Below are positions 6,033 through 20,466 of a DNA stretch of 64,000 nucleotides, in pieces. This stretch comes from Ilumatobacteraceae bacterium. GTDB taxonomy: Bacteria; Actinomycetota; Acidimicrobiia; Acidimicrobiales; Ilumatobacteraceae. Both the position numbers and the translations under genes were made by a program. Where the stretch lies: the NCBI GenBank assembly GCA_024644465.1, contig JAHEKY010000007.1:351-64350 (forward strand). The letters run 5' to 3'. How positions within the stretch are numbered: the first letter of the stretch is position 1; each line of letters opens with the position of its first letter. The notes beneath the pieces were generated by a model. It made no database searches, was not told the origin of the DNA, and saw nothing but the letters and a program-made list of their open reading frames with translations.

Positions 6033-6580
6033 CGCTCGTACCCCCTCTGCTCTCCACCAGCGTAGGTGCCCGATCCGACCCCCGGTGACGAACCGAGCGC
6101 GAGCGTCCACCACAGCACCAGCGCGAGCGCCGACAGCAGGTGCCACACGCCGTGCAACTGGACAACGGAGTCCGGGTCGCACAGTGCGCCGCCGGTCCGT
6201 CCGAGCGTCCACGCCGCCGCCGCTGCCGCAACGACGCCGAGGAGCACGACGAGGGCGCTGTGACGCACCGTCGTCCGCTGAACGAGTCTCGAGATCGTGA
6301 CGACGACCACGAACGTCGCGGTCGCCAGGATCGGCACGTCGTGCATCAGGCTCGCACCGCTCGGCTGCGGGCCGTGGAACACGACGCTGCCCGCACCGAC
6401 CGCCACGAGCAACGCGGCGAACACGAGCGACGTTGCTCGCGGTGCGTCGCGTCGTCGGGCCGCACCGGCGATCCACACTCCGACCACGACGAAGGACAGG
6501 CTCGTCACCGCATTGACCGGCTGCGCGAGCAGGCCGTCACGGAGGAACTCGCAGTCGGAGTCGCCGAGCGCGACCAGCAT
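6029..6580 (-). CDS. Ceramidase-like (CREST superfamily) membrane protein
   Basis: DCE...QPVNAVTSL, SxxxH (GSVVFHG) and HxxxH (LHGVWH) motifs in a multi-TM protein; stop overlaps the gdhA start. Confidence 0.65.
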   Translation of the reverse strand: MLVALGDSDCEFLRDGLLAQPVNAVTSLSFVVVGVWIAGAARRRDAPRATSLVFAALLVAVGAGSVVFHGPQPSGASLMHDVPILATATFVVVVTISRLVQRTTVRHSALVVLLGVVAAAAAAWTLGRTGGALCDPDSVVQLHGVWHLLSALALVLWWTLALGSSPGVGSGTYAGGEQRGYER

Positions 6581-7022
6581 CCCGAACACGACGCTCGACC
6601 GTACCGGAGCCACACCGCGGGTGTCGGACGATCGACCGGCGACGGGGACGAACAATCCACGACGACGGTCGGCGCCTACTTCACCGCCGACCGCGATGCG
6701 AACACGATCACGGTGACCGCAAATGGCGCACCGCATCATCCTACGAACGGCTCCGATCGAGCGATTCGTTCCAATCGACGATGTCAGTTTTCGCGCTGTG
6801 CTTCCTCGGGCCGCTCGCGATCGCGATCAACGAGGTCCTCGTCGAGATGTGACGGTGCCCAGCGGGCTCTATTCGGTCAAATATGCCGAGTTGCCCGGGC
6901 CAACCTGGACGTGAATTCAGGGTGTGACTGAAGCACGCACCGGCGAAAGGGGCCGGAAACGTAAGATGCGATGAAGCGACTCGACCGCGGGGCCGTCCCG
7001 GCCGAGTCGCAGGAGGGTCGAC

Positions 7023-9521
7023 ATGACGGGTCGCACGGTGCGCTGGCTGTGGCTGGTACCGGCGACGCTGCTCGCCGTGCTCCTCGGCGCCGCGACCCCC
7101 ACGGCGGCGCAGACAGCGCCGGACCCCGGCGACCAGGGCGACATCCCGATCGCGGAGTCGCGCGGCACGAACCCACCGGAGGCGACCACCACCGTCAAGA
7201 TCTTCGTCGACGTCAACGAGGTCCTCGACATCAACGAACGCGACAACACGTTCCGGGTGACGCTGACCCTCACCGCCGGCTGGATCGACAAGCGGACGAT
7301 CCCCACCAATTGCCAGTCCACGGATCCGCCCGAGACCCCCACCGTCTACGACGGCGAGCGAGCAACCGAACAATTGAAGAGTTCGATCTGGTCGCCGGGC
7401 TTCTTCGTCGTCGAGGCCCTCGGCCCACGCGAGACGAGCGCAATCGCGGTGACTGCGGACTGCAACGGGATCGTGGGATACACCGAGCGGTTCACCACGA
7501 CGGTCTTCCAGCGGTTTGGCGGGTTGAACGACTTCCCATTCGACGAGCATCCGTTGTCGTTCTCCGTCGCACCGTTCGCTCAGGCCGCGCCGGGCAGCAT
7601 CGTGTTCGTGCCGCCGAACGTCGGCGGCAACGCGTTCAACTCCGACGAGTGGGTGTCGGAGGAATGGGACTTCAGCGGCACGTCCTACGCCGACCTCGTC
7701 ATCGATGAGGACAGCGCCGTCATCACAACCGTGATCCGCATCGAGCGCAAGTGGAAGTTCTACTGGCTCAATGTGATCGGGCCCCTGCTGCTCATCGTCG
7801 CAATCTCGTGGACCGTCTTCTGGATGGACCTCAACCTCGCTGAACGCCTCGGTGTGTCGATCACGATCCTGCTCACTGTCGTCGCGTTTGACTTCCTCAC
7901 GAGCGACAACCTCCCGCGGCTGTCGTACACGACCCGTCTGGACTCGTTCTACAACGTCAGCTACCTCGCGGTCGCCATGACGGTGCTGCTCAGCATCATC
8001 GCGAAGACACGCTCGCGGCGGGAGCAGCTCACGGAGGACGCGACGACCGCCGTCAATTCCGCCGAAGCCGCGCGGTCGGCGGCCACGGAGCAGCGGTCAG
8101 CGCGCGGGGTTGACGAATATTGGCGCTACTTCTACCCGGTCGCGTACACCTGTGCGGTGACACTGGCGCTCACCGGCGCGTTCAGCCCCGGCCCCGCGCA
8201 GGCCCGACCCCCCACGAACAAGGAACGAGCGGCAGGGATGGAGACGGAGGTCGCCGAGGCACTCGACCAATCAGCAAGGATCGACGACCTGCCGCTCGGC
8301 GAAGGCAGAGACGCGACGATCGAGGAGCCGGGTGACCTGCACAGCTACGAGCTGTGCGCGCCCGCTGACGGCGGCACGCTGTCGGTGAAGATGGAGCGAA
8401 CGGGCGGTGACGGCGACATGCTCGATCCGTTCCTCGCCATGTACATCAAGGAAGACGACATCGAGGAGAACGAGGTCGTTGCACCACCGTCGAGTGAGCC
8501 GCCGAACACGACCGTGGACCCCGTTCCTTCGGCGCCGGCGTCGACCGACGCGGCAACAGCTGCGACGCCGCGCTTCGTGACGGCCGACGACAACACTGCT
8601 GGAGGCCAGGACAGCATCGTCGTGTTCGAGGCGATGCCCGGCGCGTGCTACATCTTCGTCGCCGGTGACGCCGGCGACGCGACAGGGTCGTACCGGATCA
8701 CTTCGACGACCGGCATGTTCGAGCAAGGGGTATTCGAACTGTCGGACGTTCGGCTCGATCTGGGCGTCCCGCTCGACGAGCTGCGAGGCACGGCGACCGA
8801 ACTCGTCGTCGACGTACCGGTGACCGGCAGCATCGAGCAGCGGGGCGAGTTCGACGCCTACCGCCTCTGCTCCGCCGGCGGCGGCGAGGACGTGTCGGTC
8901 GTTCTGCGACGAACGGGGCCGGAGGAAGAGCTGCTCGACCCCTTCCTGCTCGTGTACGCAGACGACGGCACGCTCGTCGACGTCGACGACGACAGCGCCG
9001 GCGGCCTCGACAGCATCGTGGTCGTCCCGGTCACCGAGAACGAATGCCATCTCGTGATCGCGCAGGACATCGACCGGGAGGTCGGCAGCTACGAGCTGAC
9101 GGCAACGCTCGGCGCCGTCGAACTCGAGCTGCAGTCCGACATCGAGTTCGTGACCGGATTCCCGCCGGGTGAGCTGTTCGATCAGGCCGAGTCGCTGCCG
9201 ACCAGCGGAAGTCGGTCCGCCGAGTTGGACTCGCCAGGAGCCTTCGACGTATCGCGGCTGTGCGTCTCCGCGGGCGACGGCGTCGCCGGCGGCCCGTTCC
9301 AGGCGACGGCCCGGCCGACCGGCACCGAGGACCAACTCGACGACCCCGCGATCATCGTGTTCGCGGACGACGGTACGCGCGTCGCAGTCGGCAGCGACGG
9401 CGACGGTGAGTTCGGCTCGCAAGTGATGTTCGACGAGCTCGATCCGGGGTGCTACCTGGTGGTCGCAGGGTCGCCCTCCGGCGGGACCGGCAGCTTCGAG
9501 ATCGTCACCGAAACTGGGTGA
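7023..9521 (+). CDS. Pentameric ligand-gated ion channel subunit (GLIC/ELIC-like) with three C-terminal PPC-like repeats
   Basis: AGGAGG RBS; signal peptide; ECD motifs IWSPGF and FPFD; pre-M1 IERK-x-FY; M1-M3 with LP-x-LSY-x-T-x-LD in the M2-M3 loop; M4; then three LDP...DD..GG..S...GSY repeats. Confidence 0.85.
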   Translation: MTGRTVRWLWLVPATLLAVLLGAATPTAAQTAPDPGDQGDIPIAESRGTNPPEATTTVKIFVDVNEVLDINERDNTFRVTLTLTAGWIDKRTIPTNCQSTDPPETPTVYDGERATEQLKSSIWSPGFFVVEALGPRETSAIAVTADCNGIVGYTERFTTTVFQRFGGLNDFPFDEHPLSFSVAPFAQAAPGSIVFVPPNVGGNAFNSDEWVSEEWDFSGTSYADLVIDEDSAVITTVIRIERKWKFYWLNVIGPLLLIVAISWTVFWMDLNLAERLGVSITILLTVVAFDFLTSDNLPRLSYTTRLDSFYNVSYLAVAMTVLLSIIAKTRSRREQLTEDATTAVNSAEAARSAATEQRSARGVDEYWRYFYPVAYTCAVTLALTGAFSPGPAQARPPTNKERAAGMETEVAEALDQSARIDDLPLGEGRDATIEEPGDLHSYELCAPADGGTLSVKMERTGGDGDMLDPFLAMYIKEDDIEENEVVAPPSSEPPNTTVDPVPSAPASTDAATAATPRFVTADDNTAGGQDSIVVFEAMPGACYIFVAGDAGDATGSYRITSTTGMFEQGVFELSDVRLDLGVPLDELRGTATELVVDVPVTGSIEQRGEFDAYRLCSAGGGEDVSVVLRRTGPEEELLDPFLLVYADDGTLVDVDDDSAGGLDSIVVVPVTENECHLVIAQDIDREVGSYELTATLGAVELELQSDIEFVTGFPPGELFDQAESLPTSGSRSAELDSPGAFDVSRLCVSAGDGVAGGPFQATARPTGTEDQLDDPAIIVFADDGTRVAVGSDGDGEFGSQVMFDELDPGCYLVVAGSPSGGTGSFEIVTETG

Positions 9522-9575
9522 GCGCCACCGTCGAGATTGGTCTATCCTGAGATCGAAGCGGGCATTGGATCCTCA

Positions 9576-10085
9576 ATGCGACGCGCAACGACTCACATCG
9601 TCCTCCTCGGAGCACCCGGGTGTGGCAAGTCACGCACCGGGTCGGTCTTCGCCCGCCAGATCGGTCGTCCGTTCCTCGATGCGAACTCCGCGTCGGACAT
9701 CCCCAGCGGACACCTGCTCCACCGCCACCGGTCGCCCGAGGTCGACGAGGCCGAGCGGGCATGGCTGGGGCGCGTGCTCGCCACCTCCGGTCCGCTCGTC
9801 GTGTCTGCCCCGTGGGAAGTGCTCGATGTCCTCGAATCGATCGAGCGAGACCGCTTCTGGGGCGTCTGGCTGGCTGCATCGAGCGAGACCTTGACCGAGC
9901 GGCTGCACGCCGACGATCCGGATCTCTCCGCCGGCGAGCTGGCGACCTACCTCGAGCACTACGCCGCGATGGCCGACATCGCCGCCCGGGTGGTCGACGT
10001 GCGGGTGAGGACCGACGATCGCACGCCTGATCGCGTCGCCGCCGAGATCCTCAAGGGCTGGAGGTCACGCTCGCTCGTGGCGTGA
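9576..10085 (+). CDS. Shikimate/gluconate kinase-like P-loop kinase
   Basis: Walker A GAPGCGKS; PFLDA; VWLAAS...L..RL. Confidence 0.65.
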   Translation: MRRATTHIVLLGAPGCGKSRTGSVFARQIGRPFLDANSASDIPSGHLLHRHRSPEVDEAERAWLGRVLATSGPLVVSAPWEVLDVLESIERDRFWGVWLAASSETLTERLHADDPDLSAGELATYLEHYAAMADIAARVVDVRVRTDDRTPDRVAAEILKGWRSRSLVA

Positions 10086-10922
10086 CGGCTCGTCAGTCAC
10101 GATGTGGGCGAGCAGCACGCCGGCGATGATCAGATTGATCAGGCTCGTCGGGAACCACATCAGGAGGCCGGCGAGCCGCTGGTCGGTGACCGCGTCGAGC
10201 CCCCAACCAGGAGCGCCGGCCGCGTAGGGCTCGTACCAGGCGAACTGCGAGAACGTGATCAGCGCCGCCAGCACGACGCCCTGCATCATCAGCGCGAACA
10301 CCGCGAGCACACCGAGCCCGTCCGGCAGTCGCGTCCGACGCGCCCCCAGGACCGAGGACCACAGCAACAACGCCGCCCCGATGAACGACGCGTGTTCGAC
10401 CGTGTGCACCCAACGGTTCTCGACTGCGGCCTCGTACAGCGCTGATGCATGCCAGAGCCAGAGCACCGCGACGAACAGCATCCACCGGCGCATCGGCGCG
10501 CGCAGCCAGCGCAACCCCGCGAACAGGCCGGTCGCCCGGCGGGTCGACACGAACGAGCGCCGCACCTGCGTCGGCAGCCCGCGGATCAGGGCCGGACCGG
10601 GCACGGATACGGCGATCATCGGGGCGGCGACGAACATCAGCAGCACGTGCTGCACCATGTGGGCCGACATCAGCTCAGCCGACAGCGCATCGATCGGTGA
10701 CAGCAGCGCGACGGCGATCACGCCGAGCCCGGCGAGGAACGCAGCGGACCGGCAGCGCGTCGTGCCCAACGACCGGCAACCTGCGACGTACAGCGCAGCG
10801 GCGACCAGCAGTACGACGACCACCAGCGGATCGAACCGCCACGCCCACAGCGCGTCGTGCGGCTGCACCGGGGCGCCGTCGTGTGCCACGAGGCCCGCAG
10901 GCAGCAGCCGCGCCGTCAGCAT
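10065..10922 (-). CDS. ctaG: Cytochrome c oxidase assembly protein (caa3-type CtaG)
   Basis: SAHMVQH, WLWH, HTVEH and DQRLAGLLMW motifs. Confidence 0.88.
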   Translation of the reverse strand: MLTARLLPAGLVAHDGAPVQPHDALWAWRFDPLVVVVLLVAAALYVAGCRSLGTTRCRSAAFLAGLGVIAVALLSPIDALSAELMSAHMVQHVLLMFVAAPMIAVSVPGPALIRGLPTQVRRSFVSTRRATGLFAGLRWLRAPMRRWMLFVAVLWLWHASALYEAAVENRWVHTVEHASFIGAALLLWSSVLGARRTRLPDGLGVLAVFALMMQGVVLAALITFSQFAWYEPYAAGAPGWGLDAVTDQRLAGLLMWFPTSLINLIIAGVLLAHIVTDEPSRHERA

Positions 10923-18012: not shown

Positions 18013-18058
18013 AAAACGGCGAACGACCCCCGAGAAATCGGAGGCCGTGCGCACGTTG

Positions 18059-18131
18059 CTCCGGGAGCAGGGCTCGAACCTGCGACATTCTGATTAACAG
18101 TCAGACGCTCTGCCAGCTGAGCTATCCCGGA
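18059..18131 (-). tRNA. tRNA-Asn(GTT)
   Basis: Full cloverleaf TCCGGGATAGCTCAG...TCTGA-CTGTTAA-TCAGA...GGTTCGAGCCC...TCCCGGAG; CCA not encoded. Confidence 0.96.
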
Positions 18132-18774
18132 AAGACTTCGGAGAGGATATCGCTTCGATCATTGCCATCACACGCCGATGGATGGTTCGACAGCTGTAGC
18201 ACACCGTTGCGCAACCATGCACATGACGATTCCGCCGTCGCGTGAGATCCGCCACAGCTCGATACGGCTTGGTGAACTGCGCCCGCGGGATCTTCGTGAC
18301 GTGCTCCCAATGCCGAATGGCCGCGTCGAGGTCCAGATCAGCGTGCAGGTACAGATTGACCCGTAAGCGGCGCTCGTCGATTTCGAACTCCGACCTGAGC
18401 CAGGTGAGGAAGATGCGCACGAGTCGCTCGTCGCTGTTCGCGAACTTGAGAGCACCGTCGGACTTGCTGCCCTCGCCTGCGTACAGCGCGAGGCAGAACA
18501 TCAGCATGTCGCGCTCCGAGACCTCGCCGATGGCGACATCGGCGTCGACGCGACACCGTTCCAGCTCGGCGAGCTTCTTCAGGTGCAGGGGGTGCGGCGC
18601 ATGTTCGCGATGGCCTCGGTTGCGCGGTTTCGGCACGAACTCGACATCGCGGGTCCAGATGGACACCGACGATTTCGACACGCCGAGCTCCTCGGCGATC
18701 TCGAGCAGCGTCCACGCCCGGGCCCGCAACTCACGCGCCCGTTGCCGTTCGACAGTCTTACCGCCGTAGCCCAT
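18094..18774 (-). CDS. HTH + LAGLIDADG-like domain protein overlapping tRNA-Asn
   Basis: N-terminal HTH (WTLLEIAEELGVSKSSVSIW); LALYAGEGSK helix followed by LKFANSD; stop TAA at 18094-18096; alternative start at 18792. Confidence 0.7.
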   Translation of the reverse strand: MGYGGKTVERQRARELRARAWTLLEIAEELGVSKSSVSIWTRDVEFVPKPRNRGHREHAPHPLHLKKLAELERCRVDADVAIGEVSERDMLMFCLALYAGEGSKSDGALKFANSDERLVRIFLTWLRSEFEIDERRLRVNLYLHADLDLDAAIRHWEHVTKIPRAQFTKPYRAVADLTRRRNRHVHGCATVCYSCRTIHRRVMAMIEAISSPKSFRDSSAGRASDC

Positions 18775-18832
18775 GTCCCCGATGATGCCCACACGGTGTC
18801 ACCACGATGCCAGGGCGCCCGTTCGGACCATC

Positions 18833-19106
18833 GACGAAGCCACCTCCCCGCGCCGACGGCGCCGGCTCGGGCACAGCCCGAGGACTCGAGTGCAGCGACG
18901 AAATCGCCGGGACAGCGACGCACGGACGCCCACTGACGAAGCCACCTCCCGGCGCCGACGGCGCCGGCTCGGGCACAGCCCGAGGACTCGAGTGCAGCGA
19001 CGAAATCGCCGGGACAGCGACGCACGGACGCCCACTGACGAAGCCACCTCCCGGCGCCGACGGCGCCGGCTCGGGCACAGCCCGAGGACTCGAGTGCAGC
19101 GACGAA
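18833..19106. repeat. 102-bp tandem repeat, about 2.7 copies, hairpin-rich
   Basis: GACGAAGCCACCTCC starts at 18833, 18935 and 19037; copies nearly identical. Confidence 0.95.
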
Positions 19107-19146
19107 GTCGCTGGGCCGGCGTAGCCGGCGCACGCCGAAGGCGTGC

Positions 19147-20466
19147 TCACTCGACTTCGAGGAACTCCCGCAGGCGCTGGCTCCGCTGGGGGTGGCGCAG
19201 CTTGGCGAGCGTCTTCGCCTCGATCTGGCGGATTCGCTCGCGCGTCACGCCGAACGCCTTGCCGACCTCCTCCAGGGTCTTCGCCTGGCCGCCGTCGAGG
19301 CCGAACCGCAACCGCACGATCTCCTGCTCACGTTCCGAGAGCTCACCGAGCACCTCGCCAACCGCATCGGTGAGCATCGCCCGCGTCGCCGCGTCAGCCG
19401 GGCTGTCGACCGAGTCGTCCTCGATGAAGTCGCCGAGGTTCGACTCGTCCTCCTCCCCCACCGGCGAGTCCAGCGACAGCGGATCCTGCGAGATCCGCAG
19501 CAGCTCGCGCACGCGATCCGGCTCGAGCTGCACCCGCACCGCCAGCTCTTCGATCGTCGGCTCCCGTTCGAGCTCCTGGTGCATCGTCCGCTTCGCCCGC
19601 GTCACCCGGTTCATGTGTTCGACCATGTGGACCGGGATGCGGATCGTGCGGGCCTGGTCGGCGATCGAGCGGGTGATCGCCTGACGGATCCACCACGTGG
19701 CGTACGTCGAGAACTTGAAGCCCTTCGTGTAGTCGAACTTGTCGACGGCGCGCATCAGGCCGAGGTTGCCCTCCTGGATCAGGTCGAGCAGTTGCATCCC
19801 GCGACCCGAGTACCGCTTCGCGATGCTGACCACGAGCCGCAGATTGGCCTGCGTCAGCTCGCTCTTGGCTCGCTCGCCACGGCTGACCGCCCGCATCAAC
19901 ATCCGGTTCTCGACCGGGTCGATCTCGGTGCCGTCCTCGGCCGCCTGGTCGATCCGCTGCGCGGCGTTGATCCCCTCCTCGATCAACTGTGCCAGGCGCC
20001 GCTCGTCGTCGACGGTGAGCAGATCGACCTGGCCGATCTCGCGCAGGTACATCCGCACCGCGTCGGACGTTCCGCCCTCACCCTTCGGTGCCGACTTCTT
20101 CGTCCGGCGGCCGCGACGGCGGCTCAGCAGCTTCTCGTCCGCGTCGTCGGGTGCCTTCGCCACTTCGTCGACGAGCACCTCCCGGACGATGCCCTGCGTC
20201 GGTTCGTGGTCCTCGGCGTCGGCGTCGAGGGCGTCGTCGATCGCGATGCCCTCGTCGGCCATCACGGACTGCACCTGCTCGAGGACGTCGCCGGTCAACT
20301 CGATGTGCCGCAGCACATGCGTCAGGTCCTCGGCATGCACCTCACCCGACTCGCGCCCGCGCTGTACGAGGTCGCCCCACTCCTCGGTGTCGACCCCACT
20401 GAACGGAGCGACCGCGTCGTCGGCGGGCGGCTCTGGAGCCGCGGCAGCACCGTCAGCTGTCGGCAC
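19147..20466 (-). CDS. rpoD: Primary RNA polymerase sigma-70 factor (RpoD/SigA)
   Basis: [59 protein letters not shown]. Confidence 0.95.

Follow-up and report, generated by a model that had tools for sequence, protein, structure and literature searches.

A predicted bacterial pLGIC with PPC-type, putatively Ca2+-binding repeats after its last transmembrane helix

What an ion channel of the pentameric ligand-gated type (pLGIC) might gain from folded domains attached behind its last transmembrane helix is the question raised by a gene of an Ilumatobacteraceae bacterium. The gene lies in the window, i.e. the entire stretch of 64,000 nucleotides that was analysed, as an open reading frame (ORF) free of internal stops, with a ribosome-binding-like site (AGGAGG) directly 5' of its ATG; the features of its product (P0001) are collected in Table 1. 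In this genome, which is 83% complete, the ORF is the single pLGIC and the only repeat carrier found. An initial annotation had described the product as a channel with a signal peptide and C-terminal repeats, and the motifs on which it relied are present at the expected places: IWSP (residue 122), FPFD (171), the acidic segments (522, 655 and 792), GSY or GSF (555, 688 and 823), and two cysteines per repeat. The signal peptide is likewise consistent with the hydrophobicity of residues 3-30, as judged by eye and from hydropathy.

Table 1. Features of the ORF, in window coordinates
Feature	Position	Strand	Basis
Whole ORF (P0001): pLGIC with three C-terminal PPC-type repeats	7023..9521	+	832-aa translation
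Predicted signal peptide, aa 1-29	7023..7109	+	Hydropathy; cleavage site by eye
pLGIC extracellular domain, aa 52-243	7176..7751	+	Pfam Neur_chan_LBD, ELIC alignment, conservation
M1-M3	7752..8006	+	Pfam Neur_chan_memb (E 3e-12); conservation
M3-M4 loop, ~35 aa, polar, unconserved	8007..8111	+	Full-length model, family alignment
M4 (D364...Y375...G385-x-x-S388), homologue of the final helix in relatives without a tail	8112..8186	+	Homology, conservation
Repeat 1, aa 419-565; D468/P469, D523/N524, C445/C542	8277..8717	+	Near-complete putative equivalent of DeCLIC Ca2+ site 1
Repeat 2, aa 590-697; D639/P640, D656/D657, C616/C675	8790..9113	+	Complete putative equivalent of DeCLIC Ca2+ site 1
Repeat 3, aa 720-832; D774/P775, S791/D792, C747/C810	9180..9518	+	Degenerate putative Ca2+ site

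The channel core

By sequence and model, P0001 is a true Pro-loop pLGIC. It matches Pfam Neur_chan_memb and, at an E-value of 1e-4 that lies under the cut-off, Neur_chan_LBD, whose cut-off is passed by three of its homologues. Its best PDB sequence matches, over residues ~32-331, are ELIC (E 5e-23) and DeCLIC (E 3e-21, 78.5 bits), and the matches listed by Foldseek for the full-length model are pLGICs only, which bears out the extracellular domain (ECD) and four transmembrane helices proposed initially, together with the expectation that the N-terminal half should model as a pLGIC. A short ECD query intended for DeCLIC did not retrieve it. The full-length model is poor (pLDDT 60.5, pTM 0.36) and was left out of any reading of domain arrangement; likewise no weight was put on a predicted complex of two cores, repeat 1 and Ca, which scored 0.00.

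The residues expected of a pLGIC core are conserved among the proteins that share this layout, referred to here as fused members. The ECD carries the Pro-loop (FPFD, residues 171-174), E72 in beta1-beta2 and the pre-M1 R242; P172, D174 and R242 are kept in all 13 full-length fused members and the M1 proline, P254, in 14 of 14; the coupling residues E72, D174, R242 and P254 are conserved in 12-13 of the 13. The disulfide that closes the Pro-loop in animal Cys-loop receptors is absent, as C97 and C147 (window 7311-7463) do not flank the FPFD motif. This family-specific pair, present in all 13 full-length fused members, likely forms a disulfide distinct from the animal Cys-loop. In M2, whose prime numbering is taken from the ELIC alignment, all 14 fused members have the same residues at -1' (Glu), 9' (Leu), 13' (Ala), 15' (Asp) and 16' (Phe). 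A Glu at -1' is a predictor of selectivity for cations, according to the accessible text of Tasneem et al. (PMC549065), and a cation-selective pore is therefore predicted for P0001. The 15' residue, D290 (window 7890-7892), is also invariant in the five tail-less relatives shown, and could be a buried acid acting as a proton or cation sensor. P0001 thus shares with ELIC and GLIC the ECD-transmembrane core and the Pro-loop, and with ELIC the -1', 9', 13' and 16' residues, yet those channels consist of two domains without accessory domains, whereas P0001 has a 2' Gly, the 15' Asp, a shorter loop-C region, a longer M3-M4 loop and an acidic tail of 440 residues.

The side of the membrane on which this tail emerges depends on M4, which is the least hydrophobic helix of P0001, with a best 19-residue mean of 1.25 compared to 1.65-2.19 in 13 other fused members. 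D364, Y375, G385, S388 and G390 in this region are invariant across the fused members, and the tail-less relatives end a few residues past the equivalent helix; this homology supports the initial view that the C-terminus of M4 faces outside. The tail is predicted to be extracellular, since a cleaved signal peptide would be followed by four helices, as judged by homology, and a cytoplasmic tail was rejected on the conservation of the M4 motif. The "rudimentary intracellular domain" previously suggested between M3 and M4 did not hold: the stretch varies from 17 to 75 residues among 14 fused members, shows no conserved sequence and is modelled in P0001 at a pLDDT below 50. It is therefore not a domain, and a conserved intracellular domain was rejected on the same variability in length and sequence.

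The C-terminal repeats and their candidate Ca2+ sites

The three repeats are mutually 27-35% identical (E 1e-8 to 1e-18). They had been described as units of ~110 residues, each with two cysteines and an LDP motif; their number and the cysteines stand, but repeat 1 extends to ~147 residues, owing to a low-complexity insertion of ~38 residues rich in Pro, Ser, Thr and Ala, and repeat 3 has DDP (773) in place of LDP, its own LDP at 806 being non-homologous. Repeat 2, the only one modelled alone (from a 9-row alignment), is predicted to form an eight-stranded beta-sandwich with a pLDDT of 88.5. Foldseek places PPC and collagenase collagen-binding domains first (top match 5SV5, TM 0.75) and the first N-terminal lobe of DeCLIC (NTD1) tenth. 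In a search of 48,161 chains, the repeat 2 model matches the ColG collagen-binding domain with a Z of 13.4 (rmsd 1.9, 98 residues aligned), the top PPC and collagen-binding matches spanning Z 13.0-13.4 and Tk-SP reaching 11.6, while both DeCLIC lobes score 10.9 over 101 aligned residues (rmsd 2.6 for NTD1 and 2.8 for NTD2). The highest identity, 24%, is to NTD1, as against 12-15% to the collagen-binding domains. For the modelled repeat, the PPC-like fold suggested at the outset is thus supported by both comparisons.

The repeats resemble the PPC and collagen-binding domains (PF04151; ColG s3b 1NQD, ColH 3JQW and 5SV5, Tk-SP 3AFG) in their eight-stranded jelly-roll, but differ from them in missing the Pfam model, in a clade-specific Cys pair and in being carried by a channel rather than a secreted peptidase. 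No match to Pfam PPC (PF04151) at the cut-off was obtained for P0001 or for any of the nine repeats scanned, and a 9-repeat profile retrieved nothing meaningful from the PDB by sequence. Their nearest sequence relatives are tandem repeats in large secreted proteins, several of which carry Pfam PPC (PF04151). The Cys pair is found in all 36 repeats of fused proteins and is lacking in the non-channel relatives; with a profile built from 18 fused repeats, it was counted in 42 of 42 fused domains and in one of 1086 others, the lone exception probably being P0008, a fragment of a fused protein. From the order of strands in the model, one disulfide per repeat is predicted.

DeCLIC, from a Desulfofustis-related deltaproteobacterium (PDB 6V4A, 6V4B, 9EV8), likewise combines a pLGIC core with tandem jelly-roll lobes, whose structural neighbours are, in the accessible part of Fan et al. 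(PMC12664993), the same as for the P0001 repeats. The insertion in repeat 1 falls in the loop that carries two helices in NTD1. The two systems differ in that the lobes precede the ECD in DeCLIC, whereas in the P0001 family they follow M4, in copy number (two, as compared to one to four) and in the Cys pair, which is absent from NTD1 and present in each lobe of the P0001 family.

The likeness extends to the residues of the stable Ca2+ site 1 of DeCLIC, given in the same portion of Fan et al. (PMC12664993) as D76, P77, D123, D124 and Y129, which in the PDB sequence sit in LDP and DDD-G-G-x-G-Y motifs. Equivalents are complete in repeat 2, repeat 1 has Asn for D124, and repeat 3, with Ser for D123, has lost one ligand and hence part of the candidate site. 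Among the 36 repeats of 14 fused proteins, all three Asp are kept in 30 and the Pro in 36. The possibility of Ca2+ binding raised by the initial annotation is therefore plausible, and the sequence, together with the analogy to DeCLIC, makes it likely that the repeats bind Ca2+ at the site of the first DeCLIC lobe. The three-Asp motif occurs likewise in 712 of 1122 non-channel PPC-like domains, so the site appears to be general to PPC domains of this type and may be a purely structural Ca2+ site with no signalling role. The figure of 15 domains per pentamer is arithmetic on a putative homopentamer, in which some of the domains would lack a complete site.

Distribution, setting and origin of the fused channels

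The layout of a pLGIC followed by one to four repeats recurs in 15 distinct proteins, P0001 included, drawn from NCBI, ENA, Logan and JGI; the ends of the single-repeat forms, which come from short contigs, are provisional. They comprise P0002-P0004, G145 (which belongs to the window's family), L012, P0021, P0179 and seven among the best 150 of a representative library, in addition to P0001. Sorting of 171 proteins gave 16 entries with both parts (two being cluster mates of P0002), 19 with the channel only and 136 with repeats only. The linker from M4 to the first Cys of the repeats measures ~48-92 residues in most members. The single fused member with a name in its source is called "hypothetical protein". 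The architecture is not common, the reservation attached to it initially: the fused form was detected in one of 200 other genomes of the family and in none of 400 of the class or 36 of the genus, many of them incomplete. Two of 35 GTDB loci are fused, both from uncultured Acidimicrobiaceae, which are the two organism-labelled relatives. Of 129 metagenome loci, 80 were retained and none of these is fused; no relative was found in 34 candidate stretches of viral contigs, and the ESM Atlas returned only Chloroflexota pLGIC clusters of 620-650 residues. A congener contains a distant pLGIC transmembrane fragment (L144; G591:C20 ~19184-19468) with no in-frame ECD upstream, probably a remnant or contaminant.

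The gene is flanked by genes for glutamate dehydrogenase and a ceramidase-like protein on one side and by a shikimate-kinase-like gene on the other. The corresponding flanks of the congener G567, at 74-80% identity, are separated by just ~156 bp, compared to ~3020 bp in the window; this synteny around an absent gene points to a stand-alone gain or loss rather than a conserved operon, and an operon with the neighbours was rejected accordingly. The neighbourhoods of L011 and L012 have no clear block in common with the window beyond the gene. Its GC3 is 0.87, against 0.93 for two neighbours. Within 6500-10300 no sigma-70-like promoter was found, and one terminator-like site inside the gene is at chance level; no terminal or flanking repeats marking mobility were found, and no RNA holder of the gene is listed. 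Elsewhere in the window, 9576-10085 holds a second, divergent shikimate-kinase-like gene, for which an ATG near 9576 is the likelier start and which has a close orthologue (60%) in one of 36 congeners. A 232-residue ORF with a helix-turn-helix-like N-terminal stretch (18094-18792) lies beside tRNA-Asn (18058-18131). At 18833-19115, just past the end of a sigma-factor-like ORF, a 102-bp unit is present in 2.8 copies with 98% agreement between them, G567 seeming to have a single copy.

In two other loci (L055, 5839-9114; L065, 1679-5545) a tail-less pLGIC stands tail-to-tail with a gene encoding PPC repeats and a caspase-like Peptidase_C14 domain, the products (P0019, P0020) being likely lipoproteins. 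This arrangement may be shared synteny of related hosts; PPC repeats adjoining the 3' end of a pLGIC gene are also a possible setting for such fusions. N-terminal domains suggested by long upstream frames in L027, L065 and L088 were discarded, as they look like GC-rich read-through.

The relation to DeCLIC was approached through the channel cores. In a quick, midpoint-drawn tree of 85 cores (23 near-duplicates dropped, and without the fragment P0044 and the later find P0179), 13 fused cores gather in one group (support 98) that lies within the tail-less channels, of which the closest with a label is from Acidimicrobiales; the tail-less status of P0048, P0049 and P0051 is taken from their protein records. 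A FastTree of 67 cores, with 39 hand-picked tail-less rows and rooted by midpoint only, places 15 DeCLIC-type and 13 C-terminal-type cores in separate groups with tail-less channels between them, and the support for the fused group across both trees is 98-99. The DeCLIC-type set was drawn from 17 ORFs (L150-L166) of the class of a Chloroflexota genome, of which the one compared with DeCLIC matches it at E 2e-137 (463 bits). Of 300 other genomes sampled in the class of G592, 15 have DeCLIC-type channels, which are thus far commoner there than the C-terminal type in its own class. The repeat profile finds the N-terminal lobe in 13 of the 17 ORFs at E <0.01, with a maximum of 21.6 bits; this is outscored by 932 of 1123 non-channel domains, which were preselected by a related profile, and the lobe score is lowered by the NTD1 insertion.

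Since the two types of core branch separately, two independent recruitments are the simplest reading, and the module was likely taken up twice, at opposite ends of the subunit. Membership of P0001 in the DeCLIC family was rejected: its core falls in a separate clade, its ECD starts ~25 residues past the signal peptide with no N-terminal jelly-roll lobes, and E347, which the accessible text of PMC9897478 gives as the main inhibitory Ca2+ ligand in the DeCLIC ECD, is not kept. By an alignment by eye through a DeCLIC-type ORF, it corresponds to N75 of P0001 and is Glu in one of 13 fused members.

Possible roles of the tail

The reading we prefer, at about even credence, is that of a cation-selective homopentamer whose outer lobes would bind Ca2+ at the equivalent of the NTD1 site and modulate gating rather than act as the gate itself. 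The subunit joins a pLGIC core to three PPC-type domains, predicted to be jelly-rolls, behind M4; on the precedent of DeCLIC, the outward lobes would become ordered when loaded with Ca2+, and their order, or a pull on M4 and the ECD rim, would shift the opening kinetics. A single gain of the module in an ancestor of the clade is likely, with secreted PPC-repeat proteins as its source and separate from the gain in DeCLIC; copy number would then have varied from one to four. The Ca2+ level or the pH is a likelier activating stimulus than an amine of the ELIC type. The analogy draws on the DeCLIC NTD, which the available portions of PMC12664993 and bioRxiv 2025.02.27.640520 report as speeding gating and as being stabilised and ordered by Ca2+, yet direct transfer of that model is weakened because E347 is not kept and linkers and copy number vary, a variation which argues against tight mechanical coupling. 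In the muscle nAChR, deletion of post-M4 segments has small effects, and the post-M4 region matters in other pLGICs, according to the accessible text of PMC9260303. A bolder form, in which the same Ca2+ lobe, recruited twice at opposite ends, makes a ring of up to 15 lobes that gates or tunes the pore from outside through M4, is possible but on the doubtful side.

The main rival, itself unlikely, takes the repeats as tethers, Ca2+-stabilised binding modules devoid of Ca2+ sensing that would moor the channel to the wall, to a protein of the cell surface or to a polymer outside the cell, and so fix its position or pass mechanical strain to M4. The best structural matches and the nearest sequence relatives described above fit such a role, variable copy number and linkers would suit avidity, and the host is likely a single-membrane member of the Acidimicrobiia, whose tail would face the wall. 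It is opposed by the lack of a conserved partner gene in G567 and around L011 and L012, and by the lower identity to collagen-binding domains than to NTD1.

A quite improbable proposal is that the repeats are true ligand sensors for peptides or protein fragments, the channel's own orthosteric site having decayed. F128 and A183 of P0001, variable across the family, occupy the positions of ELIC E77 and E131, which we take to be amine-binding residues, and the shortened loop-C region agrees with such decay. Fused small-molecule domains have moreover been proposed as extra sensors in the accessible text of Tasneem et al. (PMC549065). The tail-less sister channels, however, have a similar ECD and need no tail, and in the repeat alignments no conserved surface stands out besides the Ca2+ motif and the Cys pair. 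More improbable still is a tail that is merely tolerated, a passenger helpful for folding, stability or resistance to proteases but without a part in regulation: its patchy, rare occurrence and the six of 36 repeats without one or more of the three Asp would allow for this, but it is retained across 15 proteins, for the most part 38-65% identical to their nearest neighbours, with a Cys pair that the non-channel relatives lack. The suspicion that two genes were joined artificially, through an error of assembly or a frameshift, is almost certainly wrong, for although two clusters also contain split versions (P0006 and P0008 in that of P0002, P0034 and P0176 in that of P0018), these are probably frameshift errors, contigs from two read runs (7720-10421 and 7757-9829; three runs of one sediment-metagenome sample, possibly the source) cross the junction with no differences, and the layout recurs in the 15 proteins.

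A full-text literature search, short on subscription papers and supplements, found no published account of a pLGIC with C-terminal PPC domains; the initial annotation likewise knew of no characterised channel of this architecture. As far as their accessible texts go, Tasneem et al. (PMC549065) describe N-terminal fusions only, and Jaiteh et al. (PMC4795631) set aside unnamed C-terminal regions past M4 in some sequences. The domain combination as such is already known, because lobes of this kind make up the N-terminal domain of DeCLIC; the position of the lobes, their clade and origin, and the Cys pair are new. In the literature covered, the described accessory domains of bacterial pLGICs are N-terminal, with DeCLIC the sole solved case and the role of its NTD debated. 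The occurrence of such a lobe after M4 in one, two, three or four copies, alongside close tail-less relatives, provides a natural series on how its effect depends on the point of attachment, and bears on whether allosteric signals can pass through M4 and the terminus behind it, a point in dispute for animal receptors. If the bolder form of the reading is true, a folded sensor domain would in these channels exert a natural allosteric control by way of that terminus.
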